DNA of 64,000 nt from an uncultured Candidatus Poseidoniales archaeon (GCA_964618995.1 CAZUBQ010000002.1:25352-89351); one strand, 5' to 3'. Positions 9,233 to 35,861 are shown, numbered from the stretch's first letter. The notes: generated by a model from the letters alone, not told the origin. Translations and numbers: made by a program.

Positions 9233-9266
9233 CCGACGGGGTCTCGCATGTCACCGAGGTCGAACG

Positions 9267-9758: not shown

Positions 9759-9763
9759 GGCAC

Positions 9764-10828
9764 TCAGACCGGCCGCCGGAGGTTGGACAAACCATCTGAC
9801 TGCAGCATACGGATGAAGTCAATGTCCGGCTCCAGCCACTCAACGCTGGTCAGCTCTTCATTCTCCAGCCAGCGTGTCTGGTCGTGGACGGTCAGGCGCA
9901 ATTCATCCAACGAGCCCACAGGCTCGCACAACCAGAAGGAGAGTTCGACGACCATCGACGGGTAGCCATGCTCCAACCGTTCAAGACAGCGTATAGGCCG
10001 AACCTCAACCCCCAGCTCCTCGTTGATCTCACGCGCCACCGCACCAGCCTCTGTTTCACCTGGCTCGACCTTTCCACCAGGGAACTCCCAGTTTCCTGGC
10101 ATCGCCTCATCAGGAGCCCGGCGGGCGGCCAGAACGCGGTCGTCGTCTGCGAGGATGATGCCCGCAACGACCCTCACCCGAGGTCTCTGAGTAAGCAGCG
10201 CTCCAACCCGTCGCACCAATTCCACCTGCCGCTCAAAGGGCACCTGTTCGGCGGGAGGCACGTGGACGAAGATGGCGGGCAGGGGTCTTCCAAGACGGTC
10301 ACGACAATCTAAGCGGTCGATCATGCGCAGGGTGCGGTAGCAGGTCTCGTTGCACACGAACCTGCCCGCATCGTCGGACCTGCGCACGTCCGAATCTGAA
10401 CTGAATTCAGACAGGAGCATCTTCAGGGGAGCGGTGGTCAACTGCAACGGGAGGCCATCTTCGTCGATGAACGACTCTGATGGCTGACGCCCGCTATTGT
10501 CTGGAATGCGGAAATTGGCTTCGTTGACGGCTCCCGACTCAAGACATAGTCGTCGACGTCGCTCGGCGAAGCCGAGATGTAGAATCGCGTCCCATCCTGG
10601 TTCGTCAACAAGCAGGTCGGCGACCTCGCGGCTACCCGCCTCATCGACGCTCAGTACACGGCATTCCCATTCCACCGCGACCGTACGCGATTCCGCACCC
10701 TGTTGCGCAGGGGAATCTCCGAGGTCGACCGTCTCTGTCGCTCCATCCAGATGCTGTGCGATCTCCCCCGAGATGTTGTGCTCATTGCCTTCGAACGGCT
10801 CGAATCCGGTCACCAACACCCTGCGCAT
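9764..10828 (-). CDS. pcp: pyrrolidone-carboxylate peptidase (Pcp, peptidase C15) fused in-frame to a NUDIX hydrolase domain
   Basis: MRRVLVTGFEPFEGN...AGRFVCNETCY is the Pcp signature, including the catalytic Cys in GxFVCN. It is followed directly by GNWEFPGGKVEPGETEAGAVAREINEELGVEV, a NUDIX box (Gx5Ex7REUxEExGU). There is no stop between the domains. An ATG was checked at 10826-10828. Confidence 0.75.
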   Translation of the reverse strand: MRRVLVTGFEPFEGNEHNISGEIAQHLDGATETVDLGDSPAQQGAESRTVAVEWECRVLSVDEAGSREVADLLVDEPGWDAILHLGFAERRRRLCLESGAVNEANFRIPDNSGRQPSESFIDEDGLPLQLTTAPLKMLLSEFSSDSDVRRSDDAGRFVCNETCYRTLRMIDRLDCRDRLGRPLPAIFVHVPPAEQVPFERQVELVRRVGALLTQRPRVRVVAGIILADDDRVLAARRAPDEAMPGNWEFPGGKVEPGETEAGAVAREINEELGVEVRPIRCLERLEHGYPSMVVELSFWLCEPVGSLDELRLTVHDQTRWLENEELTSVEWLEPDIDFIRMLQSDGLSNLRRPV

Positions 10829-10916
10829 CCGCGTCACCACCAGCAATCCAGCGCGCGGGCGTGTAGGCAGGACATAGATTATCGCTGGCAAGGAAGGAGA
10901 ACCAAGTGGAGTTGGG

Positions 10917-11480
10917 GTGATGGACGACTGGGACCACCTGACTGACGAAGACTTGGACCGGTTCGCCCTAGCCGGAACAAGAGATGCGATGCAGGATGAG
11001 GAGAGCGGCGTCAGGGAGTACTCGAGCTTGATGCTCGCTGACGGGCTGTTGTACGCTGTAGGAGTGATTGCTGTCATGAATTCGGTGCTCGAAGCAGACA
11101 TGTTCCTGTTCTTCTGCGGATCGGGGCTGTGGCTCTGTTCACAATCCATCAACCGTTTTCGGCGATTACTACCCTTGTGGTTGCGTGCAGCCTTGAACAT
11201 GGAGATTGACCCTCCCGATTGGGAGATTCTGACATCCAAGCAGAAGAAGCGCCGTATCGTGACCGTGTTCGTTGCCGCTGCACTGTCCGGCCTCACCGCC
11301 TGGCGCTTCACGGTCGGGTTCGATGAGATCGCCACTCGCAGCGGAGTACCGTTCCACCTCGTCATCTTCACACTGGCTGGGATGTTGGCCCTGCTCGGAC
11401 TGCACTGGATCCGTTTGCTGATGGCTGACGAGGGCATCTACGAACCCCATTCCATGGAGCACGAAGAGCCGTGGGGCTGA
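10917..11480 (+). CDS. hypothetical polytopic membrane protein
   Basis: Acidic N-terminus, then four or more hydrophobic helices. Divergent from pcp. Confidence 0.5.
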   Translation: MMDDWDHLTDEDLDRFALAGTRDAMQDEESGVREYSSLMLADGLLYAVGVIAVMNSVLEADMFLFFCGSGLWLCSQSINRFRRLLPLWLRAALNMEIDPPDWEILTSKQKKRRIVTVFVAAALSGLTAWRFTVGFDEIATRSGVPFHLVIFTLAGMLALLGLHWIRLLMADEGIYEPHSMEHEEPWG

Positions 11481-11504
11481 AGGCGAATGGGTGTGCACGG
11501 GTGA

Positions 11505-11867
11505 ATGAAGATGGCGTCCGACGGCATACATGATGGATTCCAGCGGCGGGTGGCTGAGAGGCTGGCTGATTCACCCCGATGGCAGACTCCTTTCCGGGTA
11601 CTGCTGGTCATCTGGAGTGAATTCACCGGTGGCCTCGGTGCTTGGGGGGCACTACGTCCGCTGGTCGCCACCGCGTTGGCGTTCGTCCCGTTCTTGTTCC
11701 TCGGACAGCACTTCAACCGCCAGCATCGCAAAGGATTCGACTGGGCGATGCTGCAGATTCCATTGCTCCTAGCGCTGCTCTGGCCCCTTCTCTGGTTCTG
11801 GTCCATCTTCGACGCCTACCAGACTGCGATGCTATCCGTAGCAGACGACTATTCGGTCGCCGCTTGA
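11505..11867 (+). CDS. small hypothetical membrane protein
   Basis: 120 aa with two hydrophobic segments. Immediately follows the previous gene on the same strand. Confidence 0.4.
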   Translation: MKMASDGIHDGFQRRVAERLADSPRWQTPFRVLLVIWSEFTGGLGAWGALRPLVATALAFVPFLFLGQHFNRQHRKGFDWAMLQIPLLLALLWPLLWFWSIFDAYQTAMLSVADDYSVAA

Positions 11868-11869
11868 CA

Positions 11870-12361
11870 TCAGAAGTCGTCGGGGTATTCCACCGGAGAG
11901 AACAAGGAACCGGGACCGCTTGCCCCAGAGAGTTGACTACGCACCAGATGTTCCCACTCGCGCATGAACAACAACGCGTCCGTCAATGGCAATTCACATT
12001 CGTTGATCACGTTGCGGATGATCGTGTCGAAGATGTCGATGCGATCCCCATCGACCATGTCAAGCACCTTGTCGAGCGCGAATTCGGTATCTTGCCCAAC
12101 ATCAGCAGCAGAATCCCCAGCCTCCAGCGGCCAAGGTTGGCTGAGTCGTTCTGGCAGCTCCTCTCCCTGCTCAGCAGCGTGTGCGGAGAGGTGCGTGCTG
12201 ATCTGCTTGGTGTATTTCGAAAGCACCAGGCTGACCTCGACGACGGGCATCGAATATTGCTGAGTGAAGTTCACCATTCGTTCCTGCAGGAACAGCAGTT
12301 TGCTGGAGGTGGGAGCGTCAACGGAAGGGGGTGATTCCGGCTCAGGATGTTCATTATCCAA
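11870..12361 (-). CDS. hypothetical acidic cytoplasmic protein
   Basis: 163-aa Asp/Glu-rich ORF. It is the last gene downstream of the giant surface-protein gene on the same strand. Confidence 0.4.
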   Translation of the reverse strand: MDNEHPEPESPPSVDAPTSSKLLFLQERMVNFTQQYSMPVVEVSLVLSKYTKQISTHLSAHAAEQGEELPERLSQPWPLEAGDSAADVGQDTEFALDKVLDMVDGDRIDIFDTIIRNVINECELPLTDALLFMREWEHLVRSQLSGASGPGSLFSPVEYPDDF

Positions 12362-12397: not shown

Positions 12398-15300
12398 TCA
12401 CTCGTCACCCTTGCCAGTGAACCAACGGGCAGCGCGTTCTAGTTCATCGGCGTTGAGGTAGTTGTTACCTTCAGAGTCAAACGCCACCGCGTATGTCAGG
12501 AATGCTTCGCGGTCGGCGATTCCGTGCTCGGTCATCGCCCGTTCGAGTACCGCTTCAGAGAAGTTCATCTTCGCCAACGCCGCCTTCCCTTCCTGCTGCT
12601 GCACCTTCCAGGCCTCCACCTGCTCATGCGTCCACCCCTTCGCCAGCAGTTGAATGTCAGTCCAGCCCTCCGAACCAGATTGTGTGGCCACATCACCCGA
12701 ATCCTGAGAAATCCCACCTCCCGGTGGAGGGGGTGGAGTCGCTCCGACGGGTATCGAGTTCGGATCGAACCCTTCAGGTGGTGCCGGGGCTTTCTCTGGC
12801 GGAGGGGCGTCGGGATCGAACCCTTCTGGTGGAGGCGGAGGAGCGCTCATGTCAGCGATGACGTCAACCGTCTGATCGTGAGTGGAACCTTCGGGTTCCA
12901 ACCGCCCGAGATTGCGATTCATCACGATGAGCACGACGATGACGATGAGTGCAACCATCAAGGAGATGTAGAGCACAATCGGGCCAATGTTATCGGTGAA
13001 CTGCTGGCTCATCGCGGCCGCGTCGCGTGCTACTGGGGGCTGGAGAATGAGCGGGTCGATAGAGATCCTATCGAGCACCACATGTCCGTCACGGACAACC
13101 AGACGGTAGCGTTCGACGGTCTCCTCCTCAACCTCATCAGTTTCGATGACAATCTCCCCGATGAAGCCTGCTTGTGGCCGCAGTGTCACCTCTGTCGATG
13201 CGTCCTCGACATCGACCCATACGCCGTTGCCTATCTTCCTCTGGAGAGCGAAGGTGAGGTTGCCCTCCTCGTCATTTGAATTGGTTCCGATGATCGTCAA
13301 CGTGACCGGGTCACCCGATTCAGGAGTAGCGTCCGACCAACTGATGTCCGTCTCAAACAGGTCTACGTCCGGGCCGACGCGAACGAGGCGCCAGGTTTCG
13401 AGCGGAGTTGCCTCAGTGTTGTTCTCTGACACATACGGATTTCCGGCAGCATCTGCACCTGTCACCCAGACATCCACCAAGTATCCCGGAAGAAGTTCAG
13501 TCACCCCACCGTCGGTGATGTCGATGGTGTCGGTCCAGTGTCCGTATCCGTACTGCTGCAACAAAGTGCGCAACTCGTAACTGCCACGTGCTACTTCCGA
13601 CTCGCCAGCACGCACGATGTAGTGCAGCACTGCCGGTCGGTTGGAATCGAAACCTGAGGCGTCGCTGGTGTTCAGGAACACCACAATCTCTCCAGCGTCA
13701 GTCAGAGGGATGTCTCCGGAGGGAAGAATGGAGTTGATTACTGGCAGAACGCCATCCACCTCGAGCAGGATGCGCGGCGGCTCAGGTGTCTGGTCAGTCG
13801 CCAGTCCAGGAAGGTTCTCCAGCCATGCGAACATGTCGAGGTGACCGCTACGCACGTTCGGGACGAGGATGTCGACGGTGAACTCCCCACCCTCGCGCGG
13901 CACTGCTCTCCATTCGAGTTCTAGGTTTCCGACGACGATGTCGAAAGCGCCTTCAGGCGCAGGTGCGTGGTCCTCGCTGAACAGGATGCGTCCGTTGACG
14001 CGGACGACCTGTCCGGCAGCGATAGTCCGTTGCTCTCCCTCCTCATTGTACAGGTTCTGGCCGGTGGCCAGATCGATGGCTGTGAAGTGACCCGGGTCGA
14101 GGTCGAAGCGGAGGTCATTGTCGAGGCTCCATTCGTCATTGCCCAACCCACCTCGTTCAGAGAAACATGGCTCCAGTGTTTCCGCGTAACAGGGCCAGTC
14201 GGATACTTCAATCACGGGAATGTAAGTGGACAAACCATCGGTATCCATCTCTTCCGGGAATTGCCATGTCAACTGGAAGCGGATGTTCAGGTCAATGATT
14301 GACTCATTGCCATCGACCAGAGTGTAATCGCTGTAGAGATTGGACACCGCTAATCCAAGACCCCCCGATTCAAGATACATGTCGAGAGTACCGTCCTCAA
14401 GTTTGGTGAAGTTGGCCCAGATTGAGCTCTCTGACTCGCTCAACTCGCCATTGAGAGAAATCTGGACATTGGAGATATCGTTCCAACCGTTACGATCGAC
14501 CACCCTCAGCCGCGCGATGTACTGCGTACCGGGATGCAGTGGTGCCTCGTCGTCGTGTCCAACGATCGTCGAGTTCTCCGATTCCAAGTATGGTTCAAAC
14601 TCCTCACGGATGTGATAGGTGACCAGGTCAGCTTCCCAATCAGGTTCCTCCTCGTTGAAGCCTACACCGCAGGGGTCAGCCTCTTCTGAACACACGGGAC
14701 CTCCACCCATCGCCAGCGCGTTACCCTGAGCATCCGCCCCCTCGATGTAGAGAGATACCTTCTCTCCATGGTGGTTCACGTTGTCCTGGATGAGCCCCTC
14801 GAAGATGTTCAAGCCGCCGGGTTGCACCTCGGGCGTGTTCAACGTCAGGTAACTGTACTCATTCCAATCGGGTATGCCATCGTAATCGAGGTCATGTTGC
14901 CCTTCGACCCAATAGCGCAGGTCGAGTTGTGTTGGCGGATCGACAGAGTCCTGCACGACGATGCGAATCGGCTGGCTGGGTGTGCCCTTGTGCACCTCAT
15001 CGCCATCAGAGGGCGTCGCGCCGATTACGAGCGGACTGTTGCCGTCGAGCACCAGTCGTACCGTGTTCCAACCCGGATTGACGAACTCTGAGTTGTTGAC
15101 GAGGCTGACCGCCTTGATGCGAAAGAGCATACCGCCCGGTGACGACTCGACCGGGCTGACAATCGTGATTGAGTACTGCCCGTGGGACGGATTCGGTTCG
15201 ATGTGGAACTGCTTCTCCGGCTCCATCGGTTCCCCATCCATTGTCAGGTTCTGGCCGGTCAGTTCCAGGCTGAACTGTCCTGCCTGTGGAGAGTAAGCCG

Positions 15301-17875
15301 TTCCATCGAAGGATATCGAACCGTGGAACGTCACCTCGAGTCCGCCACGTACCCAGTCACTTCCGGAGAGTACGCGACCGGTCTCGTCCTCGACGCCCAT
15401 ATCCATCAGTTGGATGTCGTTCTCCACTCGCATTCCAAGACTCTCAGTCTCCCAGCGGGTCACCTGCCTACCGATGTCATCGTCGACAGTGAGCAGAACC
15501 TCGATGCCGCTCTCGTCGTCCCAAGTCCAGTTCGAACGCAACGGGAGCAGCAAGGACAGGACTCCATCAGACGATTCCTGCGAGGTGCAGTTTGCAGCAT
15601 CGAAGGAGATCAGGTCGGCGTTGTCCGACACCAGCGAGCAGGCATTGCCGTTGGACCACCTGATGATGGGATTCTCCACGCCGGTCGCCTGTAACTCGAC
15701 GTCGACCTGGTTGATGCGGTCCGCCTCGTCACCCTCAGCGACCCTAGCCACCAACACACGGCTCACTCCGTCGGGGACGAGCATGCCCCCTTCGAGCGAG
15801 GCGTCGAGCGCCATCGTGGACATCTTGTAGGTTACATCCAGATTGGATACGCGTATGCGACCGGGAGAGCCTGCCATGAAGGTCAGAGTGACGTTGCTGA
15901 CTCCGACTCCGTTATCCAGAATGTTGTCGTTGAAAGCATCGACAAGGTTCTGCCCACTGAGGGTTACCGGTTGGTTGAGCAGGTCCGTGCCGACGTATTC
16001 GTAACTCCCATCATCCCCAATGTCGATTCTGACTGAACTCGGGTAGCCCTCCTCGTAGTCCAGAGTGAACGAAGATAGAGAGGGCGTAACGCTGGAGTCA
16101 GTTGACCCGAAGGTCACCCGGTAGGCCAATTGGTTCCCCTGTGAGGTGAACGTCACCATCTGATTGTTCGTCACCGTCTGCCAGTTGCTGCCGTTGTCAT
16201 TGCTCACCTCCACACCCACTGTCGTCCCCGGTGGAGTGGATTCCACCCAGGACACCTGCATCTGCCCTACCTGTGTGCTCGTCGTGACCGTGGGCGAGGT
16301 CCAACTCCCCGCTGTGTTGTAATCAGTGGAGTAGTTGAGCGACATCCACCACGATACCGAGGTCGACCCTACCATCTGCAGCTTCCAGCGCAACTGCTGG
16401 CCGGGATGAGGGAAGTGCACCGTCTGGTTGTTCACCACCTGAACCCAGTGAGTTCCGTTGTCCGCGCTCACCCAGTAATCGACTCGGTCACCCGCGGCCG
16501 TCGCCGACCAGACCGTCTCGATGTTCGCCACCAGCACGTCGCTGTTCGTGTCGATGGGCTCACTGATCCAGTTCGAAGTCCCCGGTTGGGGAGATATCGG
16601 ATAACTCCAGCCAGTGCCGAATTCCCGGTAGTAGCGATTGGTGTAGTGGTAGTGATCATGCGTCAGAAGTCGCTGGCCATCGTGGTAAATCCCGTAACCG
16701 TTGGCGGGAATGGATGCCTCTCCGGTCTGCTTTGCGAGGGTGGTAGAGGTACCGCTGACAGCGAACACCTCGATTCTGTCCTGATAGTACTGGAAGCGGC
16801 TGCGCATGAAGAACAGGTTGTCCTCGACTGCCAACCCGTGCTGTTGGTTGTAATTCGAGAAGTAAGCGTACTGCAGGCTTCCGTCTCGCTCAAACGTGCC
16901 GTCGTCGGAGAAGGAGTAGGGAAGAATGGTCCGCCTGGTGGGGTGGAGTACCCAGAAGATATCCCTGCTGCGGTCGAACGAGATGCCGGTGTAGGAGCCG
17001 AACTGCTGGCCGGAGAGATCGTAGGACTGGATGCACTCCCAGTTGTTCTCGTAGCGAATGTCAAGCACCCATAATCGGAGATACTGCGCTTGGTAGTTGT
17101 AGGCGTCAGAACCGATGATGGCGTAGAGCCGCTCATCGTCTCCGACAGTCCACCCTCGGAATCCATACTCCCCCCACTGCGACATTGTTGGGAAGGCGCA
17201 GTTACCTGACTCGATCATGACCGAGGAGTGTACCGACATGTTGTTCGGCCAGACCTTCTTCACCACCTGATTGATCTGCTTCGAGTCGAAAGTCGAGACG
17301 TAAAGCCAGTCGCGGTGCTTCATCACCGCGCCGGCATAACTGCCAATCGACGAGGTGAGCGTTCGCTGAGCTGAGAGGCGGGTCTCGGTCGAGTTCGAAG
17401 TGTGCGGCTGGCGGATGCTGAACGAACCGTTGTCATTCCAAGCACTGCCGGACGAGGCGTTGTCATCCATGCTATGCGGGACGAACTCCTTGACGGGGGA
17501 ATCCATCGCCAGCGTGAGTTCATCAGAGCGAGTCTCTACAGATGTGGCCTCACCAGATTCCCAGTCCGGTCGAGATTGATGTACGATCTGGTTCCAGCCG
17601 GTCGACGAGGCGCCGGCAATCGTCATCTCCACATCTGTGACCTCCGCCCCCCGCGGCATCGAGACTTGCACGTTGCGAGCTGGAGTCCCCATGTGGTAGA
17701 CAGCAATCGCCTCGGTGCTGCCATCCGAGAACGAGTACTGGTGGCGGGTTCCACCTCCGGCAGCACTCACGTCGTCAGCGATGAAGGATAGGGCGGGGAC
17801 TCCGATGGAGCAAAGGAACAGCAACAGCAGTGTTCCTGAGAGGAGTCGCTTGCTATGTTCCGGGTCCATGGACAA
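12398..17875 (-). CDS. giant cell-surface protein (1825 aa): Sec signal, ~1600-aa ectodomain, one C-terminal TM, Pro-rich linker and a ~90-aa cytoplasmic domain
   Basis: N-terminal signal LLLLFLCSIGVPALS. Thr/Ser/Asn/Trp-rich beta-type domains. TM IVLYISLMVALIVIVVLIVM. PPPPPEGFDP(x2) linker. Terminal domain with an EF-hand-like DSEGNNYLNADE loop. Confidence 0.8.
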   Translation of the reverse strand: MSMDPEHSKRLLSGTLLLLFLCSIGVPALSFIADDVSAAGGGTRHQYSFSDGSTEAIAVYHMGTPARNVQVSMPRGAEVTDVEMTIAGASSTGWNQIVHQSRPDWESGEATSVETRSDELTLAMDSPVKEFVPHSMDDNASSGSAWNDNGSFSIRQPHTSNSTETRLSAQRTLTSSIGSYAGAVMKHRDWLYVSTFDSKQINQVVKKVWPNNMSVHSSVMIESGNCAFPTMSQWGEYGFRGWTVGDDERLYAIIGSDAYNYQAQYLRLWVLDIRYENNWECIQSYDLSGQQFGSYTGISFDRSRDIFWVLHPTRRTILPYSFSDDGTFERDGSLQYAYFSNYNQQHGLAVEDNLFFMRSRFQYYQDRIEVFAVSGTSTTLAKQTGEASIPANGYGIYHDGQRLLTHDHYHYTNRYYREFGTGWSYPISPQPGTSNWISEPIDTNSDVLVANIETVWSATAAGDRVDYWVSADNGTHWVQVVNNQTVHFPHPGQQLRWKLQMVGSTSVSWWMSLNYSTDYNTAGSWTSPTVTTSTQVGQMQVSWVESTPPGTTVGVEVSNDNGSNWQTVTNNQMVTFTSQGNQLAYRVTFGSTDSSVTPSLSSFTLDYEEGYPSSVRIDIGDDGSYEYVGTDLLNQPVTLSGQNLVDAFNDNILDNGVGVSNVTLTFMAGSPGRIRVSNLDVTYKMSTMALDASLEGGMLVPDGVSRVLVARVAEGDEADRINQVDVELQATGVENPIIRWSNGNACSLVSDNADLISFDAANCTSQESSDGVLSLLLPLRSNWTWDDESGIEVLLTVDDDIGRQVTRWETESLGMRVENDIQLMDMGVEDETGRVLSGSDWVRGGLEVTFHGSISFDGTAYSPQAGQFSLELTGQNLTMDGEPMEPEKQFHIEPNPSHGQYSITIVSPVESSPGGMLFRIKAVSLVNNSEFVNPGWNTVRLVLDGNSPLVIGATPSDGDEVHKGTPSQPIRIVVQDSVDPPTQLDLRYWVEGQHDLDYDGIPDWNEYSYLTLNTPEVQPGGLNIFEGLIQDNVNHHGEKVSLYIEGADAQGNALAMGGGPVCSEEADPCGVGFNEEEPDWEADLVTYHIREEFEPYLESENSTIVGHDDEAPLHPGTQYIARLRVVDRNGWNDISNVQISLNGELSESESSIWANFTKLEDGTLDMYLESGGLGLAVSNLYSDYTLVDGNESIIDLNIRFQLTWQFPEEMDTDGLSTYIPVIEVSDWPCYAETLEPCFSERGGLGNDEWSLDNDLRFDLDPGHFTAIDLATGQNLYNEEGEQRTIAAGQVVRVNGRILFSEDHAPAPEGAFDIVVGNLELEWRAVPREGGEFTVDILVPNVRSGHLDMFAWLENLPGLATDQTPEPPRILLEVDGVLPVINSILPSGDIPLTDAGEIVVFLNTSDASGFDSNRPAVLHYIVRAGESEVARGSYELRTLLQQYGYGHWTDTIDITDGGVTELLPGYLVDVWVTGADAAGNPYVSENNTEATPLETWRLVRVGPDVDLFETDISWSDATPESGDPVTLTIIGTNSNDEEGNLTFALQRKIGNGVWVDVEDASTEVTLRPQAGFIGEIVIETDEVEEETVERYRLVVRDGHVVLDRISIDPLILQPPVARDAAAMSQQFTDNIGPIVLYISLMVALIVIVVLIVMNRNLGRLEPEGSTHDQTVDVIADMSAPPPPPEGFDPDAPPPEKAPAPPEGFDPNSIPVGATPPPPPGGGISQDSGDVATQSGSEGWTDIQLLAKGWTHEQVEAWKVQQQEGKAALAKMNFSEAVLERAMTEHGIADREAFLTYAVAFDSEGNNYLNADELERAARWFTGKGDE
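12690..12850 (-). repeat. coding Pro-rich direct repeat (PPEGFDP x2 within PPPPPEGFDPDAPPPEKAPAPPEGFDPNSIPVGATPPPPPGGG)
   Basis: Near-identical GGATCGAACCCTTC(A/T)GGTGG units at ~12754 and ~12805. This is the cytoplasmic linker of the 1825-aa giant. Confidence 0.6.
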
Positions 17876-18011
17876 GCCTGCCTAGCAATGCCACCATTTC
17901 GGCTGACTATCAATGCTCTGCACAATGGACACACGCCTACGGCGGGTGTCTTGTGACGATTTTCGTCTGTTTCCCAGAGAACACACAACACTGGAAAGTG
18001 AGGGTGCTCAC

Positions 18012-21000
18012 TCAGCCGATGTTCGTCTTACGGTCATCCCAGCGTAGTGGAGATGGGCCGTTCCCACGGACGTTGTCGAGCATGTCGTTCTCAATCTCGA
18101 ACCAATCATTCAGCCAGTCACCATCGGAATCCCAGTTCAATGGGTTCGTCCCATCGGCTATCTGGTCACCATCCATGTCGATGCGCCACCAGCCCCACAC
18201 GTTCTCGCCGATTCCGGTGTTGGGGAAGTGGTACTGGTCACCGAACACCCTGCCGTACTCGTCGGTCCAGTCCCCCTTCACAAGGTGGATGTCATTGCCG
18301 TTGTCGATGGTCATGTAGTCCGGGTCCATGTCGTTGATGACCAGAGCATAGAGCTCATCAGTGGAATTGGTGCGATACATGCGCATGTAGTTCACCAGGT
18401 AGGAACTCGGCTGTCCCAATCCAAGCAGCGTCTCACGTAATTCCCACCATTCGCTGACCACCACGTTGATCGGTGGGCTGGTCCCAGCAATCGGTATCGG
18501 TGTCGAGCGCACCAGCGTGGGCGAGACCAACGAGGCGTTGGTGATGCCGTAGAACTCCTGGAAGTTGTTGTAGGAGGTGTAGGTACAACCGGCATTAGTG
18601 CATTCCCAATCTCCATCTAGGTCCGGATCCTCCATCGCATCGGCAGGGTCGGTAGCGTTGAACGTGTACCAGGTCCAATTCATCAATGGCCGTTCGAGCA
18701 GACCCATGCCGTTGTCGTGCAGCGGGCGCAAGACAATGCTGCCCAGCACTGTGTACTGCTCCCAGACAGTCTCGATTTGGGCGTACGATGACCAGTTGTC
18801 ATTAGATTCGTTCCAGCCCATCTTGTACTCGTACCAGTCGGGCAGCATGTCCCAGTCGGTGTCGTTGTCGAGCGCGTTGGTGCCGTACTTGAACACCTCT
18901 CGACCGTCGAGCAGCGCCCAGTCCCTCTCATAGCTGAGCGTGATGTTGTCGTCGCTCGGATCGCTGATGTGCGTGTAGGTGATGGCGTCTTCGTCGGTGT
19001 CGTTCAGGTCTGGTCGAGTGCCGTTGTCGTACTCCATCCAGTTGGTGAAGAACAGCGGAGAGTTGCCCGCTGATATCTGGTCCTCTATTCCCCCAGAGGT
19101 GAACACATGACTGCTCCATTCCCCTTGAGTTGCCACCCTGTCTCCGGAGGTGCGGTCGAACCAGCCGTCAAGATCAGGGTCGTAGTCGATGTCCAAGGGG
19201 TTCACAGGATTGGTAGCCCAGCGCCAGTCGTCGACTGGGAACACGGTCTGGTATGTCCCGTAGCAGAACTCCCATCCGTCGGGGATGCCATCGGAGTCAG
19301 AGTCGGAGTGAGTCGGGTCGGATATTCCGATGAGACTGAGATTGAAGTTGTCTGAATAAGCGGAGTTGATACGATTCATACGGTTGGAACTGGTGACATC
19401 CTTGGCCGCGAACGTTTGCACCAGTTGCGCGCGAGCATCCCCCCAAGAGAGACCCTGCTCATCCATGTAGGCGTTGATGGCGTCCTCACCGTAGTCGACG
19501 ATGCCGAATCCCGGCGGGAAGGAGTAGCGCATCGACTCCTTTCCGTAGACCCGGGCTTCATACTCGCGGAGGTTCGAGTAACGCTCGTCAGGCGCTATCT
19601 GTCCATCCTGGTTGCAGTCATACGAGTCGTCGTCACTATCGGCGAATACATCGGTGATGGTCAGCGGATTCATCGACCAACGGTTTCCGTCGAGGTCCCA
19701 TTCTGTGAACCAATACTCGTAGCCGTCGATCATGCCATCATCGTCGGTGTCATTGTTGGTCGGGTCGGTGATGCCGATCAATGTAGAGAAAAACGGTTGG
19801 GCTATGCCAGTTACTTCCCAATTCCAGTGTTGCTGTAATGCGATGAACGCTCTTCCAGATCTCCCTTCGAGCATGTCCTCGATGCGTTCGGAGAAATTCG
19901 CTGACTCGAGCACGAGCGCCTCTTCCCACATCTTGGGCGCGTCCGGTGGTGCAAGGCCACCGTTGAGGGGGTTCTCGTACGTCAGGTTCAGCTCCTGCAG
20001 GTCTGTGAGTGCGTCTTGGTCACCGTCCGCGCCTCCATCCCCAGCAACCAGAGGGTTGAGGGTCCAGTTGAGGAAAGACAGGTTCCACTCGGTGAACAGC
20101 AGTTCGATGCCATCGAGCAGGCCGTCACCGTCACTGTCTCCATTGTTCGGGTCGCAGGTCGGCCCGGACAGATTGTACTGGTCTGAGGACATGAACGCAC
20201 CGAAAGAGGGCGCGCCCACACCCTGAGCCCATGGCTGGAGTATGATCTGGTTGCCGCTCCTGAACGGGAACCATTGTGGCGAGGTCTGGTTGGCGTCGGT
20301 CTCAGACAAATTGGCTGAAATGGAGTTGTACTCCTCCCAGTTAGTCATGCCGTCGCCGTCCGGGTCGTTGAAGCGGTCGGACGAGTTCATCGGGTTGAGC
20401 ATCCACTGCGCATCGAAAGTGTCCCAGCGGGCGAACCATACCTCCCAGCCGTCAGGCATGCCATCAGTGTCGCTGTCGGCGGACAGTGGGTCCGATGCAC
20501 CCTCGTCAGTGAGGATGATTCCTGGAACATTGCTGATGGCATTGAAACCGGCACGCTCGCCGAACGGCAGCGTCGCACCGCTCGTCCAACTATCGTTCCA
20601 CAGAGAAGTGACGAAACCTGCGGGGAGCGGGGTGCCGTCATCGGTCATGTTCCCAAAGATCTGCTTGTCCTTGATGTGGTACTCCATCCAGTTGTTGAAC
20701 CACTCGTCCTCGGTCAACTCACCATCGTGATTAGCGTCGTAACCATCACCGTCGGGGTTGTTGAGGTAGTCACTGCCGTTGAGGGGGTTGATGCCTACGT
20801 TAGCCATGCTCCACACGCACGCGTAGCGAGCCTCCCATCCATCGGGAAGCGAGTCACCGTCCGAATCCGGATTGTTGGGGTCGATCTTCGTCCAGTTCTG
20901 TGCGGCCTCGGCACTCTCACCGTGGCTCGGCAGCCCGTTCGCCCGTGAATCGAGCAGAAGGAGTTCCCACTGGTATTCACAGTAGTTCGTCAGCCCATCG

Positions 21001-23759
21001 CTGTCCGCGTCCTCATCACGATCGGTCGGGTCCATCGGATCAAGGGTCCATTCGTTGCCGCCGTGGAAGGTGGTGCCAATCCAGCGCCGATTCTCAATCT
21101 CCCAACCATCTGGCATGCCGTCTCCGTCACTGTCCCACACGGTAGGGTCGGTCGCCCGGTCGGTGGCGCCCGAGGAGCCTGTGCCTTGCCAACCGAGCGC
21201 GTAGACCTGTTCGGCTATCTCGCCTTCGGAATCGTCACAGAGGTACTCACCAGTCTCGTAGTGACAGGTGAAATTCGTCTCGGAGAAGAACCAGCCCCAG
21301 TACTCCGCACCATCCAGCAGACCGTCACCGTCGGTGTCGGATAGACGTGGATCCGTCCCGTTGAAGCCTTCGGGAACTATCGCCAGATAGCGGAACTCAT
21401 CGAGATTGGTCCAGTTGTGGTCAGGGATATCATCCACGTAGGGATTGAGATTGATGCCATCGACGTCGAGGTCCTCGTCCCTGTCGAACGGATCGGTCGG
21501 GTCGAGACCATGCGCATTCTCCCAACCGTCAGGCATACCGTCGAGATCCGAATCGTTGTTGAACGGATTGATCAGCATGCGGTTGGAATAGCGTCCGGGG
21601 TCGAGGCCAGCGAACACAGTCTCATTGCCGTCCACGTTCATCACTGCTAGTTCAGTGACGAATCCGGGTATGCGGGTATGTCCGACGTCCACGCCGAGAG
21701 AACGTGCGTAGTCACCGTTGAGTACCCATGTGCCGAACGCGGAACCTATCAGCACCTCGTCGCCCAGAGGCAGAATGGCATGTACGTTGTTGGCACCCTC
21801 GGTGTTCCATTCATCGTTCTGCATCCGCTCGCGAGTGAAGGCGACCAGCGGGTCGGCGGCGTCCAGTAGTGAGAATTGGTGCACGCCGCCGGCGGTTCCC
21901 ACCCAGATGGTTTGGTGACTTGAGAGAGTTCCATCGGAAGCGCGTGGGCCGTCCACGACCAGTGTGCGGATGTTGGCTGAGTGCGACGCGTTGCTCGGGT
22001 CAGCGGCGCGCACGTAGAGTTCGGCCAAGGTCTCGTTGAAAATCCAGGTAATGGCGAAGTCGCCGCGCGCATCGGCGGTGTCTGCCACGAGCATCCCATT
22101 GTCAGTTCCGAGATACAGTTGCGGTGTCTGCCCATCCAAGGTCGCATGCGCCACTGCCTGTAGGGTGGCATTCTCCACCGCCAGCGCTTCGACCACCTTC
22201 TGCGCAGGAACCACCGCGCTCACCTGCCCGCTACCATCGACGCTGAACGTCCATGCGCTGCCAGCGGGTCCGCCGGCGAGCAGGTCGAGCGAGCCGCTTC
22301 CGGTGCTCAACCGGCTGAGCAGACTGACCTCTCCGAACTCAGCGGTGTTGACCGGCGCCGTAAGATCGAGCTTTCCGCTGTCGTCAAGGTTCCACACCGC
22401 TATGCTCTGGTTCAGTGCCAACACGAGGAATGATTCTCCTCCGCCATCTGTCCAATGGACCATGTCGTTGAGCTCCACCCCTGGTAGGAGTTTGTAGTGG
22501 TAGGTTGCTCCAGTGGCCGGCTCGAAAATGGTGACGCCACGCATTGAGGCCACGTAAATGAGGCCTAGTTCGGAATCGACATGCAACGCCCGAACATCAT
22601 GATGCAGGATGGCGGGAGATGTGCCTTGATCGTACATCTGGACTTCTGCGTCGACTTTACCCAACGGGGTGCTCTTCATGCCAGCGCGAACCCAGGTTCC
22701 TTGATCGATGAAGATGTAGTACTCCTCCAGATTGCTCAACGCCTCACCGAGGTAGATGGTAGCCCGCGAACCGTCTGGTAGCACCATACCGTCGCGATCG
22801 ATGTCCCAGCCGTCCTCGTCGCTGTCAAGCAGGCTGTCCGACTCGTTGCGCGGATCGAGCCCGAAGAAAACCTCCCAGCCATCGATGATACCGTCGCCGC
22901 GGTTTGACTTGGCCAACTCACGTGAGCCAGACCAGTAGAAGAAATCGGAGTCATTGCGCAATGGGTCGGTCCCCAGCCACCCGGGATATCCAGTGGGTCT
23001 TGTATCGAGGTCGGTGCAGGCGGGCATCAACTCGATGCAGCGCAGTCCGTGGAACTCGGTGGTCCAGTTCTCCCAGGCGCCGTAGTTGTACTCCTCTGCG
23101 TTGGTGTACCATTCGTGCACTTCTATGATACCATCACGGTCGACATCGAATCCGTCGCCACACCCCAGATCACCATCGATGCAGCGATCTGAGTCATTCT
23201 GACCATCGTACGAGTTCAACGGATCGAACGCGTTGCACTCCCAAGCGTCGCTCTCGTTGATGGAACCGGTCTCCATCATGCACATCCAAACCTCATAGCC
23301 GTCGGGGAGACCATCTCCGTCAGTGTCCGCCACACGCGGATCGAGGAACTCTCGTAGCCCCGATTCGCTCTCACCCGGGGGTTTGCCTGTCAGGCTTCTT
23401 CGGTTGGTGAAACAGTTGTCCAGGTCGTACGGCCAGCAATATTCTGCCAACGCGACCAAGCCATCGTTGTCGAAGTCAGACTGGTTGTCAGAACCATTCT
23501 CGAAATCGAGGCCATTGATGACGAGCGTTACATCGTCAAGAGTCAGATTAATCGCCTGGCTGAACGCCTCCTCGTGCAGGTCTGGGATGAGATCCTTATC
23601 GGTGTCCGTGATTGGTGGGCCTTCGCCCGTCGTGTCGTCTGGGTGGACCGATTCGACAGGTGAGTTGGGACGACTCTGCGACACGAAAACCATGCTGCCC
23701 AGAATGAGCAGAGTGACCAAGATGACAGTCTGCTTCCGGCGCACGAATAACACCCCCAA
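18012..23759 (-). CDS. giant secreted calcium-binding adhesin-like protein (1915 aa) with >10 thrombospondin-type-3-like D-x-D-x-DG-x-PDGWE repeats and a probable beta-propeller segment
   Basis: Signal anchor VILVTLLILGSMVFVS. Recurring DSDGDGMPDGWE, DTDGDGLPDGYE, DSDSDGIPDGWE and DTDDDGMIDGYE motifs. Trp-rich interrepeat modules. Confidence 0.8.
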   Translation of the reverse strand: MGVLFVRRKQTVILVTLLILGSMVFVSQSRPNSPVESVHPDDTTGEGPPITDTDKDLIPDLHEEAFSQAINLTLDDVTLVINGLDFENGSDNQSDFDNDGLVALAEYCWPYDLDNCFTNRRSLTGKPPGESESGLREFLDPRVADTDGDGLPDGYEVWMCMMETGSINESDAWECNAFDPLNSYDGQNDSDRCIDGDLGCGDGFDVDRDGIIEVHEWYTNAEEYNYGAWENWTTEFHGLRCIELMPACTDLDTRPTGYPGWLGTDPLRNDSDFFYWSGSRELAKSNRGDGIIDGWEVFFGLDPRNESDSLLDSDEDGWDIDRDGMVLPDGSRATIYLGEALSNLEEYYIFIDQGTWVRAGMKSTPLGKVDAEVQMYDQGTSPAILHHDVRALHVDSELGLIYVASMRGVTIFEPATGATYHYKLLPGVELNDMVHWTDGGGESFLVLALNQSIAVWNLDDSGKLDLTAPVNTAEFGEVSLLSRLSTGSGSLDLLAGGPAGSAWTFSVDGSGQVSAVVPAQKVVEALAVENATLQAVAHATLDGQTPQLYLGTDNGMLVADTADARGDFAITWIFNETLAELYVRAADPSNASHSANIRTLVVDGPRASDGTLSSHQTIWVGTAGGVHQFSLLDAADPLVAFTRERMQNDEWNTEGANNVHAILPLGDEVLIGSAFGTWVLNGDYARSLGVDVGHTRIPGFVTELAVMNVDGNETVFAGLDPGRYSNRMLINPFNNDSDLDGMPDGWENAHGLDPTDPFDRDEDLDVDGINLNPYVDDIPDHNWTNLDEFRYLAIVPEGFNGTDPRLSDTDGDGLLDGAEYWGWFFSETNFTCHYETGEYLCDDSEGEIAEQVYALGWQGTGSSGATDRATDPTVWDSDGDGMPDGWEIENRRWIGTTFHGGNEWTLDPMDPTDRDEDADSDGLTNYCEYQWELLLLDSRANGLPSHGESAEAAQNWTKIDPNNPDSDGDSLPDGWEARYACVWSMANVGINPLNGSDYLNNPDGDGYDANHDGELTEDEWFNNWMEYHIKDKQIFGNMTDDGTPLPAGFVTSLWNDSWTSGATLPFGERAGFNAISNVPGIILTDEGASDPLSADSDTDGMPDGWEVWFARWDTFDAQWMLNPMNSSDRFNDPDGDGMTNWEEYNSISANLSETDANQTSPQWFPFRSGNQIILQPWAQGVGAPSFGAFMSSDQYNLSGPTCDPNNGDSDGDGLLDGIELLFTEWNLSFLNWTLNPLVAGDGGADGDQDALTDLQELNLTYENPLNGGLAPPDAPKMWEEALVLESANFSERIEDMLEGRSGRAFIALQQHWNWEVTGIAQPFFSTLIGITDPTNNDTDDDGMIDGYEYWFTEWDLDGNRWSMNPLTITDVFADSDDDSYDCNQDGQIAPDERYSNLREYEARVYGKESMRYSFPPGFGIVDYGEDAINAYMDEQGLSWGDARAQLVQTFAAKDVTSSNRMNRINSAYSDNFNLSLIGISDPTHSDSDSDGIPDGWEFCYGTYQTVFPVDDWRWATNPVNPLDIDYDPDLDGWFDRTSGDRVATQGEWSSHVFTSGGIEDQISAGNSPLFFTNWMEYDNGTRPDLNDTDEDAITYTHISDPSDDNITLSYERDWALLDGREVFKYGTNALDNDTDWDMLPDWYEYKMGWNESNDNWSSYAQIETVWEQYTVLGSIVLRPLHDNGMGLLERPLMNWTWYTFNATDPADAMEDPDLDGDWECTNAGCTYTSYNNFQEFYGITNASLVSPTLVRSTPIPIAGTSPPINVVVSEWWELRETLLGLGQPSSYLVNYMRMYRTNSTDELYALVINDMDPDYMTIDNGNDIHLVKGDWTDEYGRVFGDQYHFPNTGIGENVWGWWRIDMDGDQIADGTNPLNWDSDGDWLNDWFEIENDMLDNVRGNGPSPLRWDDRKTNIG

Positions 23760-23978
23760 CTACGTTGGTGGTGTCTAACCACATTCTTTCCCTTATGATG
23801 CTGATGGAGCACAGTTCGGACACTGCGACTCGTCGCGGTGGAGCGAATACCACAGGTACTTCAGGTGAGAGTCCACAGGGTAACACGCGCTTCCCATGGA
23901 TTCGTTCGGAGGGTGGAGGGGTATCTGAAAACTGACGTCCTCTAATGTCAGCAAGAGGTGAATTGAAGGTGTGACTGT

Positions 23979-24806
23979 GTGCCCGAAGCGCTCGCGATGA
24001 CCCTACAACTGACCCATCTCGGAACAGGCAGCCGTGGCAACGCCACCTTGCTATGCTCTGAAGAGGCAAACATACTGCTGGACTGCGGATTCTCAGGCAA
24101 GGAGTTGGAACGTAGACTAGCCTTGCTCGAACTGAAGCCGGAAGACCTGGATGCGATCGCCGTGAGCCACCACCACAACGACCACTCCAAGGGGGCACTA
24201 ATCGCCAACCGTCGCTGGGGCATTCCTCTGCACATGAACTTCGATACCTGCGCCCGGCTTGGGCTTGACCCGGTCAACGACTGCACCCTGTTCGAAGCAT
24301 TGGGACGCGTCGAATTCGCCGACGACTTGTCGCTGCTGCCAGTACCTGTGGAACACGGAGATGCGGACAATGTCGGATTCATCGTCAGCCATCGTGGAGA
24401 GAGAGCTGCGGTGGTGACGGACCTCGGTTCATGGTCAACCGAATTGGTGCGTCACCTCGGCCAATGCACGCACATTTCGCTCGAGGCGAACTACGACCAC
24501 GGGCGCCTGTTGGGCGGCCCCTATCCTGACCGCTTGAAACAGCGTATCATGGGTCGCGGCGGACACCTGTCTAACGAGCAGGCGGCCGATCTGCTCTCTG
24601 AAGTCTGCGGCCCCGCCACGAGAAGTATCGTACTCTGTCATCTCTCAGAGCAGAACAACCAGCCACACCTCGCCGAGAGCGAGGTTCTGATGAACATAGA
24701 CAACCAGTTCGATGGGGATCTGTCCATCAGTCTGCAGTCAGGACCGGAATTCAGCCACTACCTGGGTCAGGTAGAGCCAGAACGACTCTCGAGTGCGCAT
24801 ATCTGA
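23979..24806 (+). CDS. MBL-fold metallo-hydrolase (metallo-beta-lactamase superfamily)
   Basis: AVSHHHNDHSKG (the HxHxDH zinc motif), plus downstream His and Asp ligands. ~270 aa. Confidence 0.75.
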   Translation: MPEALAMTLQLTHLGTGSRGNATLLCSEEANILLDCGFSGKELERRLALLELKPEDLDAIAVSHHHNDHSKGALIANRRWGIPLHMNFDTCARLGLDPVNDCTLFEALGRVEFADDLSLLPVPVEHGDADNVGFIVSHRGERAAVVTDLGSWSTELVRHLGQCTHISLEANYDHGRLLGGPYPDRLKQRIMGRGGHLSNEQAADLLSEVCGPATRSIVLCHLSEQNNQPHLAESEVLMNIDNQFDGDLSISLQSGPEFSHYLGQVEPERLSSAHI

Positions 24807-24858: not shown

Positions 24859-25902
24859 GTGGGGAACGTGCGCCAGCGGAGCGGCTCTCTCGCCCGTCGA
24901 GATGTTGGCGGTGTCAGCGAGATTCTCGGCGTGACGATGCTGCTGGCGATGGTCGTAACCGTGCTAGGAGCTGTGTTCGTGCTGCTCGCGCCATTGGTGA
25001 ACGACATCAACGACAATAGAGAGTGGGCAGCGGGCAGCGTGGCTGCCACTCAATTGAATGACAGAATCTTGGTCGTGGCTGATTCACCTGCAGGAACCGG
25101 CGTCGTGCATCACAGCGCGCAACTCGCCAATACAATCGACTGGCTTCCAAGGGCGGAAACTTGGACGATTGCTGCCGATCTGGCCGGAACTGACCGGGTG
25201 ACCGTACAACTGGACCCGGGCGAGGTAAATGTCACCAGTTTGAACCGCACCGCCAGCAACGTGACAGTTGTCACCGAGACTGCTACTTACCAATTCGACC
25301 TCGTGAACGGAACGGGAAACCTCAGCATCGGCAGCGCCATGCACGGGAAGGTCAGCGTGGAGGTGAAAGACATTCATGGGAGCACGATTCACCGCCTAGT
25401 GCGCATCTCCATCGACGGCATTCGCCTGAACAACCAGATGAGCGGGGGTGTATTCAGCGTGGATCTCGTGAATGGGGCGCGCATAGAGAAACTCCCCGGG
25501 CAGGGTATCGAAGTGCAGCAGTATCCGCGGCTGCGACATGATGTCCTCATCGACGGGACTCATCGCGTCAGTCTGGTACTGCTCAACATCGATGTCGGCG
25601 AAACCCTGACGCGGCACATGACCACTGTGAACCTCGGTTCGCTTGGAACCGAGGCGCTGTTCGAGGCTCAGTCGCGCAATCTCCTGCTGAAGTCTGAGTT
25701 CGTTACTGAAGCGACCATCGGCGCACGCTACACCCATCACTGGGCTGGAGACCACGATCTGTGGCTGGCCAGCGGACAGATAGACGACTACAATGGATTC
25801 GGCCCCCGCCAGCGCCTCTCTGGGCTCGATGGGCTGACACTGTTCCCTGCCGACGAGACGTTCACCCTTGAGGTCACGTTGCAGAAGGTGGTGGTGAGTT
25901 GA
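24859..25902 (+). CDS. protein with an archaeal type-IV-pilin/FlaF-FlaG-like N-terminal domain (class III signal-like)
   Basis: N-terminus RRDVGGVSEILGVTMLLAMVVTVLGAVFVLLA resembles the (K/R)G-VSEVIG-hydrophobic motif of archaeal pilin-like proteins. The rest is a beta-rich, Asn/Thr/Val-rich ectodomain. Confidence 0.55.
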   Translation: MGNVRQRSGSLARRDVGGVSEILGVTMLLAMVVTVLGAVFVLLAPLVNDINDNREWAAGSVAATQLNDRILVVADSPAGTGVVHHSAQLANTIDWLPRAETWTIAADLAGTDRVTVQLDPGEVNVTSLNRTASNVTVVTETATYQFDLVNGTGNLSIGSAMHGKVSVEVKDIHGSTIHRLVRISIDGIRLNNQMSGGVFSVDLVNGARIEKLPGQGIEVQQYPRLRHDVLIDGTHRVSLVLLNIDVGETLTRHMTTVNLGSLGTEALFEAQSRNLLLKSEFVTEATIGARYTHHWAGDHDLWLASGQIDDYNGFGPRQRLSGLDGLTLFPADETFTLEVTLQKVVVS

Positions 25903-31198: not shown

Positions 31199-31229
31199 CG
31201 GTTAGCAATCAATGTGCGCACGGCACCGT

Positions 31230-35630: not shown

Positions 35631-35699
35631 GTTCACATACTCCTGATGTGAGCGGCCGATGGAGGGACTGAATATAAGCAAGAAGGCTCGACGCAATAG

Positions 35700-35790
35700 T
35701 ATTTGTATCAATTATCACTGTTTGTATCAATATTTTCTCGCTAATTTTCCTTACACTGTATCAATTTCAATGAAATGTATCAATTATTAA
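35700..35790 (-). promoter_or_regulatory. AT-rich upstream regulatory island with four direct copies of TGTATCAAT (candidate transcription-factor binding sites) upstream of the beta-helix giant gene
   Basis: Copies at ~35704, 35723, 35757 and 35776, arranged as 19-bp-spaced pairs 53 bp apart. Local GC is ~28% versus ~62% for the window. A TATA-like CTTATAT lies ~45 bp upstream of the ATG. Confidence 0.5.
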
Positions 35791-35861
35791 TATCATACCT
35801 AGGATGAAATATCAGAATTGGTCTAATGACTGGTTGGATATTACCGGAATCAGGTGTGATG

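Follow-up and report, generated by a model that had tools for sequence, protein, structure and literature searches.

A 64,000-nucleotide stretch of DNA from an uncultured Candidatus Poseidoniales archaeon (GCA_964618995.1, CAZUBQ010000002.1:25352-89351; hereafter the window) carries two adjacent minus-strand genes for giant surface proteins, which we name A (the 1915-codon open reading frame, ORF) and B (the 1825-codon ORF). Our preferred explanation of the pair, to which we give a probability of roughly 45%, is that A and B form a constitutive, Ca2+-stabilized, N-glycosylated complex at the cell surface that is anchored by B. We favor this explanation because the two genes are strictly adjacent and retained together, they are under housekeeping-level constraint, the two proteins are anchored in complementary ways, the putative Ca2+ loops are invariant, and conserved sequons occur together with AglB and GT2 genes. 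The Poseidoniales, or Marine Group II (MGII), are among the most abundant archaea of the surface ocean, and we know of no cultured MGII strain.

The A-B gene pair and its distribution

The two genes lie in the window as follows (all coordinates are window positions).

18012..23759, minus strand: gene A, 1915 codons; giant protein rich in putative Ca2+ loops, secreted or N-terminally anchored
12398..17875, minus strand: gene B, 1825 codons; giant surface protein, predicted to be type I membrane-anchored

An earlier sequence-only reading had described two giant, adjacent, same-strand ORFs of 1825 and 1915 amino acids (aa), and both are found at exactly the coordinates it gave. Its description of the products as secreted or surface proteins is likewise supported by their signal or hydrophobic N-termini and by the transmembrane (TM) helix of B. 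Both ORFs as drawn begin at TTG, and alignment with orthologues suggests that the true start of B is the ATG at codon 3 (17869), giving 1823 aa, and that of A the GTG at codon 6 (23744), giving 1910 aa. From these starts B has the length of P0001 (1823 aa, 92% identical) and A that of its closest homologue, P0121 (1910 aa). The genes are separated by 142 bp. Both products are very acidic and poor in Lys (D+E 15-18%, K+R about 5%). BLASTP comparison of the large proteins of the window (A, B, a 1493-aa Big_7 protein and a giant AglB) detected neither paralogy nor long internal repeats. Full-length Pfam and NCBIfam scans of A and B returned no family above threshold; scans of segments, not of the full-length proteins, brought out sub-threshold matches to TSP3_bac in A and to EF-hands in the tail of B.

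All homologues of A or B belong to MGII, from ocean metagenomes or metagenome-assembled genomes (MAGs), and represent the families Thalassarchaeaceae (MGIIb) and Poseidoniaceae (MGIIa). The nearest genomes, at 90-95% identity, are MAGs of Poseidoniales, one of them from Station ALOHA. The relevant medium is seawater, which contains about 10 mM Ca2+. With one genome scanned for each GTDB species, 324 loci with a relative of B were found, and synteny was read in the best 80 of these, with the presence of A upstream scored only where the flank was long enough. In every locus with sufficient flank, and in both families, B is immediately preceded by A on the same strand. A larger block, p749-p347-MBL (divergent) followed by A-B-h163-...-NUDIX/pyroglutamyl-peptidase-...-GT2-h305-dnaJ, is kept in both families, and also in the composite MG-II genome CM001443 (locus L049). 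The best 80 loci are all from Poseidoniales, bar two contigs labelled Yoonia and Deltaproteobacteria.

The gene lengths vary little across loci (A 1,817-2,039 aa; B 1,753-1,883 aa), and orthologue identity ranges from 44 to 94% for A across the Poseidoniales (homologues of 1,890-1,920 aa) and from 42 to 92% for B (homologues of 1,750-1,880 aa). Between the two families A and B are each 43-47% identical, as against 46-56% for DnaJ and 39-46% for GT2 from the same loci. On the grounds of synteny, stable length and DnaJ/GT2-level identity, A and B are core, strongly constrained genes and not strain-specific ones. The sequence-only reading had asked whether these giants might be strain-specific; the comparison answers that they are not, with the pair syntenic at all examined loci with enough flank in both families. 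The pair is probably a core structure of the cell surface, not a strain-specific adhesin.

The two oddly labelled contigs (L044, CAXRJJ010000019.1, Yoonia sp.; L050, JAOMAZ010000002.1, Deltaproteobacteria bacterium) each hold the full Poseidoniales A-B block, and their labels probably reflect contamination in binning or in single amplified genomes.

Protein A is built around repeated Asp loops

Protein A divides into four parts.

23661..23744, minus strand: N-terminal RRK and hydrophobic segment (hydropathy 11-29); signal peptide or uncleaved signal anchor
22680..23660, minus strand: N-terminal region of putative Ca2+ loops, aa 34-360; about 8 DxDxDG loops and conserved Cys pairs
21585..22679, minus strand: central region, aa 361-725; the least conserved part of A
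18015..21584, minus strand: C-terminal array, aa 726-1915; Trp-rich modules, each with a DSDGDG(M/L)PDGWE-type loop

The protein is 12.2% Asp and 4.0% Trp. It contains 11 matches to the strict loop pattern DxDxD[GSDAM]xxDxx[ED], as against a mean of 0.02 and a maximum of 1 in 2000 residue shuffles, and 25 looser DxDxDG loops, as against 2.9 +/- 1.7 in the shuffles. The medians for the A family are 11 strict and 28 loose loops. The sequence-only reading had counted more than 10 copies of D-(S/T)-D-...-PDG-(W/Y)-E, which holds if variants are included (the 11 strict loops) but not to the letter: PDG[WY]E itself occurs in 6 copies, the others being variants such as LLDGAE, LLDGIE, MIDGYE, LPDWYE, LNDWFE and IIDGWE. 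Across 21 A orthologues that span the order, the Asp, Gly, Pro, Trp and Glu positions of the loops do not vary.

The Trp-rich modules said to separate the repeats are indeed present, as the C-terminal array of aa 726-1915. A typical module reads (T/S)DPxxx-DSDGDG(M/L)PDGWE-xWFxxWxxxxxxWxLNP-...-DxDxDG(M/L)TNxxEY, so that in most modules the first loop is joined by a second, of the form DxDxDG...EY, 37-43 aa downstream (onset to onset, 37 aa in four modules and 41-43 aa in two).

Outside the loops, the N-terminal hydrophobic segment is unusually conserved across the order (consensus MRRKQTALLxTLLILxSLxFVSQxRP), and this conservation hints that the segment is retained in the mature protein. The central region has a conservation of 0.40-0.55, compared with about 0.7 elsewhere in A, and is probably a beta-propeller: here the A family profile has a weak match in the PDB to the WD-repeat protein Utp9 (E 0.004). 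Conserved features of A include 14 Cys and 13 sequons (present in at least 70% of orthologues), and sequons are enriched 2.5-fold in the A protein of the window.

To which family the loops of A belong can be narrowed down by profile comparison. The sequence-only reading had called them thrombospondin type 3 (TSP3) or OmpA-linker-type loops. The best Pfam family for segments of A is indeed the bacterial TSP3 family TSP3_bac (PF18884), at 16.4-20.4 bits and E-values of 5e-4 to 8e-3, but this lies below the cutoff of 25 bits, is confined to positions 1-13 of the 22-position profile and is absent from the full-length scan. Precomputed PF18884 hits are carried by 17 A orthologue clusters, some orthologues scoring above the Pfam threshold, and NCBI names one A orthologue 'thrombospondin type 3 repeat-containing protein'. 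The eukaryotic family TSP_3 (PF02412) gave no match, either to full-length A (E <= 1) or to six segments of it (E <= 10), and that part of the assignment falls. No thrombospondin or cartilage oligomeric matrix protein (COMP) chain was recovered in PDB profile searches with the A family (E <= 1) or the module alignment (E <= 10). The module profile instead gave weak matches (E >= 0.02) to the Ca2+ site of C2 toxin and anthrax PA and to calmodulin EF-hand pairs, the latter at E 0.02-0.2. NCBIfam models of the Myxococcus proteins CglD (NF033765; 27.4 bits against a cutoff of 400, 7e-7) and MtsD (NF047639; 18 bits against 800, 6e-4) also matched, and since these matches are confined to the Asp-loop stretches they reflect shared Asp loops only.

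These comparisons place the loops in the general DxDxDG class of Ca2+-binding loops, nearest to bacterial TSP3, of which they are, by pattern and profile, a derived bipartite variant; they are predicted to bind Ca2+. With TSP3_bac, the repeat of OmpA-family linkers and of Myxococcus CglD and MtsD, A shares the 12-13-residue loop D-(S/T)-D-x-D-G-(L/M)-P-D-x-(W/Y)-E, and a few copies (at aa 736 and 288) run on into the G-L-D-P end of that repeat. Most copies, however, are broken after the loop by the Trp-rich insert WFxxWxxxxxxWxLNP, and the addition of a second DxDxDG...EY loop about 37 aa further on creates a bipartite module that has not been described for TSP3_bac. The resemblance to eukaryotic TSP3, the 'wire' of thrombospondin and COMP, lies in the tandem, Asp-rich DxDxDGxxDxxD/E logic of an extracellular glycoprotein, but the units of A mostly lack Cys and so do not have the conserved Cys pairs found in each eukaryotic unit, and the 14 conserved Cys are scattered outside most of the loops. 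Finally, the 37-aa spacing of the two loops in a module equals that of an EF-hand pair; the module may fold in the manner of an EF-hand or dockerin pair, or else as a TSP3 wire.

Protein B is a predicted membrane-anchored stalk

The main parts of B outside its tail are these.

17762..17869, minus strand: signal peptide, aa 3-38; poorly conserved
12986..17761, minus strand: ectodomain, aa 39-1630; all-beta, ~1,600 aa
12917..12985, minus strand: transmembrane helix, aa ~1631-1653, by hydropathy; basic residues follow

The poor conservation of the signal peptide is expected of a cleaved signal. From its N-terminal end the ectodomain runs through a beta-sandwich, a propeller-like domain, two Asp-box sandwiches, an Ig-like chain, a TSP3-like loop and a CARDB-like membrane-proximal domain. 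An AlphaFold2 model of aa 31-1230, built from 62 aligned orthologues, is multi-domain and all-beta (pLDDT 86), with the propeller-like domain at ~aa 169-430. The two sandwiches at aa 434-609 carry Asp-boxes (SxDxGxxW), namely SADNGTHW and SNDNGSNW; other giant proteins, with matches to Pfam Reelin_subrepeat-B and BNR, contain as many as 16 copies of the same Asp-box domain. One TSP3-like loop, at aa 995-1006, is conserved, as are 8 Cys and 12 sequons (in at least 70% of orthologues), all of the sequons in the ectodomain. A Foldseek search of the PDB with the model of aa 31-1230 matched generic multi-domain extracellular proteins at TM-scores of about 0.1, among them mastigoneme, the MG arrays of complement and alpha-2-macroglobulin, PorU, integrin alpha and Sevenless. 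A PDB profile search with the B family alignment yielded nothing useful.

The residues NRNLGRL directly after the TM helix fit the positive-inside rule, and B is predicted to be a type I membrane protein. The signal peptide combined with a single TM helix, the basic residues after that helix, and the lack of sequons and Cys in the rest of the chain mark that last part as a probable cytoplasmic tail.

An exhaustive phmmer search brought out more distant relatives of B at 24-28% identity (P0254, P0258, P0265, P0268, P0326, P0362 and P0363, and locus L081). These are proteins of 1,600-1,800 aa from marine archaea which keep the signal peptide, the ~1,600-aa ectodomain, the TM helix and a tail. 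A CARDB domain precedes the membrane in both relatives that were scanned (P0254 and P0265). Their tails are swapped, being variously poly-Asp/Glu/Tyr, Trp-rich repeats (GWWQDEHGQWWQK...) or EF-hand.

The modular tail of protein B

The tail has three parts.

12674..12916, minus strand: juxtamembrane DQTxxV and Pro-rich linker, aa 1654-1734; two PPEGFDP(D/N) units
12596..12673, minus strand: tail motif WTDxQLLxxGW(T/S)xxQ, aa 1735-1760, from the orthologue alignment
12401..12568, minus strand: EF-hand module, aa ~1770-1825, with the loop DSEGNNYLNADE at aa 1800-1811 (window 12443-12478)

The C-terminus of B had been described as a TM helix, a linker of PPEGFDP repeats and a 91-aa C-terminal region containing DSEGNNYLNADE, and this is what we find. 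The parts of the tail that are common to the whole order are the TM helix, DQTxxV, a variable Pro-rich linker and GW(T/S)xxQ. Within the first of the two motifs Q1667, T1668 and V1671 are nearly invariant, while the linker varies in both length and sequence. The second, GW[ST]xxQ, falls within the last 130 aa in 118 of the 120 B family clusters, with G1746, W1747 and Q1751 invariant, and forms the C-terminus of B in the Poseidoniaceae.

By contrast with these order-wide parts, the EF-hand module (~60 aa) is confined to B orthologues of the Thalassarchaeaceae (MGIIb) type and is missing from the whole Poseidoniaceae branch. It would be a later add-on of the Thalassarchaeaceae branch. In one B orthologue (P0016) the module comes before the GWTxEQ motif, not after it, showing that these two parts of the tail are modules that can be separated. 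Searching for homologues with the profile of the tail brought up nothing but C-terminal pieces of B orthologues on short contigs, and no other family sharing the tail.

The sequence-only reading had proposed an EF-hand-like loop in a cytoplasmic domain of about 90 aa. The orthologue consensus, FD(S/A)DGN(N/R/K)YLxxxEL, fits the PROSITE EF-hand pattern (PS00018), and in 19 of 21 aligned tails (that of the window being counted among the 21) position 3 of the loop is Asp or Asn, as the pattern demands. The loop of the window itself (DSEGNNYLNADEL) has Glu at position 3, outside the allowed [DNS], and so does that of its closest relative. Loop residues D1, Y7, L8, E12 and L13 are invariant in the aligned tails. 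The Pfam scores of the tail of the window are sub-threshold (EF-hand_6, 15.1 bits against a cutoff of 25; EF-hand_7, 15.4 bits against 30); EF-hand_6 is matched by 17 of the 21 orthologue tails, the best at E 1.4e-3 and all of them below threshold. Profile comparison with the PDB gave calbindin (1.5e-7) and calmodulin (about 5e-4), with no other protein among the 60 chains listed. Direct alignment to EF-hand 3 of calmodulin with hhalign had a probability of 88%.

The AlphaFold2 model of the C-terminal 91 aa of B is a five-helix domain with a pLDDT of 85, a confident fold and not the disordered segment that would have undermined the original proposal. It includes a helix at residues 55-65 of the model, a loop at 66-74 and a further helix at 75-85 (pLDDT about 90), and two 2-residue strands are sited where paired loops would meet. 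A Foldseek search with this model gave no significant match (best E 0.75), to EF-hand proteins or otherwise, which leaves a canonical EF-hand domain of paired loops unproven. What stands of the proposal is thus a helix-loop-helix in a folded tail domain that resembles calbindin by profile; it is tempered by the restriction of the module to one branch and by Glu3 in the window. The predicted helix-loop-helix and the loop pattern of the orthologues are shared with the EF-hands of calmodulin and calbindin (PF13405, PF13499, PF00036), but the tail has a single canonical loop with no recognizable pair, and the motif is joined to the predicted cytoplasmic terminus of a giant surface protein of an archaeon.

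Neighboring genes

Directly downstream of B is a small gene of the conserved block.

11870..12361, minus strand: h163, 163 aa, 36 bp downstream of B; D+E 18%

The h163 product has no signal peptide and no Pfam hit. The gene stands directly 3' of B in most of the loci whose flank reaches that far, in both families, though several MGIIb loci had no match, and outside near-identical genomes its product is 41-53% identical. It is a candidate operon member and, more speculatively, a cytoplasmic partner of the B tail.

Genes for an AglB oligosaccharyltransferase and a GT2 protein share the window with A and B. The giant AglB (37221-47036, minus strand, 3271 aa) has its STT3/AglB domain at aa 439-777 and the AglB core at ~aa 1044, after which comes an extension of ~2,200 aa that includes a CarboxypepD_reg domain. 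It has 65 N-x-S/T sequons where 22 are expected, and this protein, encoded 14 kb from the A-B pair, is probably self-glycosylated. Between the A-B block and AglB (28649-37163, minus strand) lie genes for a STAND-type NTPase with helix-turn-helix and TPR regions (849 aa), the 1493-aa surface protein with Big_7 domains and 18 sequons, and a secreted-type subtilase S8 of 433 aa; a second S8 subtilase is at 56700-58721.

Divergent from A, and syntenic with A-B in both families, are p347 (24859-25902, plus strand) and p749 (25899-28148, plus strand), whose N-termini (GVSEILGVTMLLAMVV and EAVSAAIATVLLFAGTLAI) resemble archaeal class III (type IV pilin-like) signals and which have weak matches to DUF7289. 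No PilB/PilC-type ATPase was found among the ORFs of the window that were scanned.

Three minus-strand ORFs, h170 (9251-9763), h122 (11438-11806) and h200 (23596-24198), are rich in Ser, Arg, Pro and Cys and have the look of wrong-frame translations; for h122 and h170 there are tblastn matches of 40-57% in other Poseidoniales. The 557-aa ORF at 9764-11437 (minus strand) combines pyroglutamyl peptidase (Peptidase_C15) with NUDIX, while its N-terminal ~200 aa have no domain hit. It may be over-extended or a fusion, since homology in other loci is often limited to about 1 kb at the C-terminal end.

Explanations of the A-B pair

We infer from these features that A and B associate, that their sequons are glycosylated and that the pair has an envelope or adhesive role. 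In such a complex B would be the membrane-anchored stalk, in which a propeller and a chain of beta-sandwiches lead through the TM helix to a cytoplasmic connector whose motifs DQTxxV and GW(T/S)xxQ would dock a cytoplasmic partner. A would be its distal or lateral partner, either secreted or held by the conserved N-terminal hydrophobic segment. The ~25 loops of A would be saturated by seawater Ca2+ and so rigidify the protein, with the central propeller as a variable, outward-facing part. Both proteins would be N-glycosylated at their conserved sequons, and in the Thalassarchaeaceae the EF-hand may make the cytoplasmic linkage Ca2+-sensitive.

Several observations count against this picture. 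The literature we searched turned up no expression, proteome or imaging data for A or B, and the top-expressed MGII genes listed in a Red Sea metatranscriptome study are others. The 142-bp gap between the genes could house a separate promoter. The remote relative P0265 has no A-like neighbor, which implies that B-type proteins can function alone. No S-layer protein appeared among the top 50 Foldseek matches of B aa 31-1230, in the PDB profile searches with A and B or in the Pfam and NCBIfam scans, and no characterized adhesin matched A or B by fold or sequence in the searches run. The AlphaFold2 models, moreover, cover aa 31-1230 and the tail of B only.

One alternative takes A and B for the S-layer itself, as a two-component system like that of the Sulfolobales, with SlaA as canopy and SlaB as membrane-anchored stalk; here A would be the outer, Ca2+-dependent lattice and B the anchor. 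The pair is universal, tandem and length-stable, with a signal peptide, a C-terminal TM anchor, sequons, an acidic, low-Lys composition and glycosylation genes nearby. Divalent cations stabilize several archaeal S-layers, and no MGII S-layer protein is reported in the searchable literature. The parallels with SlaA/SlaB and the large archaeal S-layer glycoproteins are the tandem genes, the combination of a secreted with a C-terminally TM-anchored component, the sequons and the clade-wide occurrence. There is, however, no similarity in sequence or fold to these proteins, nor did any solved S-layer protein emerge from the profile searches or the top 50 fold matches; A and B are both about 1,800-1,900 aa long and are much more conserved than S-layer proteins usually are. 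S-layer proteins usually diverge fast, whereas A and B are as conserved as DnaJ. The very high expression expected of an S-layer finds no support in the Red Sea metatranscriptome, in which other MGII genes come top, and a long cytoplasmic tail (~170 aa in B) with conserved motifs is atypical of S-layer anchors. Taking both sides together, we consider an S-layer in this strict sense unlikely.

A second alternative makes A and B independent adhesins, for particles, algae or cells, that are adjacent only for co-regulation. A passage in Rinke et al. 2019 (PMC6461757) notes thrombospondin genes as widespread in the Poseidoniales and reads them as adhesion factors. The architecture of a propeller on an Ig-like stalk does resemble that of adhesins and receptors, the variable propeller of A could be a ligand-binding head, and there are the weak NCBIfam matches to CglD (7e-7) and MtsD (6e-4), although these score far below their cutoffs and reflect shared Asp loops only. 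Accessory adhesins are normally patchy in occurrence, variable in copy number and fast-evolving, whereas free-living and particle-associated lineages alike carry this pair, in synteny and at constant length. Independent adhesins also seem to us an improbable account.

The preferred complex may also be given a bolder form, in which A and B would be the principal envelope of MGII, an S-layer-like, Ca2+-dependent canopy that the B motifs couple to a cytoplasmic partner, possibly h163, with the EF-hand rendering the linkage Ca2+-responsive in the Thalassarchaeaceae. We would bet against this fuller picture, but if true it would mean that one of the ocean's most abundant groups of uncultured archaea has an integrin-type connector between envelope and cytoplasm.

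We see only a slim chance that B is a transmembrane receptor, with A as co-receptor and the EF-hand as a Ca2+ switch, in an integrin-like outside-in relay such as the sequence-only reading had suggested. The idea draws on the conserved cytoplasmic motifs and folded EF-hand module of a type I surface protein, on the conserved small acidic protein encoded just 3' of B, and on the exchange of tail modules on a constant ectodomain among the remote relatives, as happens in signaling receptors. Integrin alpha and Sevenless ectodomains are also among the fold matches (E about 1e-7 to 3e-6). In gross architecture B is similar to integrin alpha, with its propeller, sandwich legs, TM helix and short conserved tail, and putative Ca2+ loops are associated with a partner that contains a propeller. 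The individual matches, to alphaX, alphaM and alphaV, have Foldseek E-values of 2e-7 to 3e-6, but TM-scores of 0.08-0.15 against B, and values of about 0.1 denote generic architecture only. Pfam gave neither FG-GAP nor integrin hits for B, and a partner resembling the VWA-containing beta subunit is lacking; the likeness to integrins is architectural only. Scanning the tail and the conserved neighbors for domains revealed no known output domain such as a kinase or cyclase; the whole Poseidoniaceae branch lacks the EF-hand, whose loop is non-canonical in the window; and the best fold match of the tail model (E 0.75) is not significant.

A haloarchaeal origin of the pair, with A and B as acidic adhesins that bind Ca2+ and Mg2+ and are adapted to the hypersaline exterior that the sequence-only reading had assumed, can be dismissed as next to impossible: the very acidic, Lys-poor composition given above would fit, but all homologues come from marine Poseidoniales MAGs and ocean metagenomes, and the cytoplasmic neighbors are charge-balanced (DnaJ of the window has D+E 15.6% and K+R 14.4%) and not acid-shifted, only the surface proteins of the window being strongly acidic, so that taxonomy and neighbor composition together refute it.

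Significance

In outline, calcium-loop surface proteins and thrombospondin-like genes were already known in MGII. The literature we searched on MGII and Poseidoniales surface proteins and envelopes holds nothing on A, B or the envelope beyond the note on thrombospondin genes by Rinke et al. The order-wide A-B pair, the bipartite module of A, and the modular tail of B with its lineage-specific EF-hand are undescribed in the searchable literature.

A and B are candidates for an envelope scaffold, for the particle or algal attachment that has been inferred from 'thrombospondin genes', and for virus receptors. They could serve as lineage-wide markers or targets, for antibodies, for tagging by fluorescence in situ hybridization (FISH) or for metaproteomics. 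Through the modular tail of B one can ask whether surface structures are coupled to the cytoplasm in archaea. And if the Ca2+ in the ~25 loops of A is structural, the integrity of the MGII cell surface would be linked to the Ca2+ of seawater.

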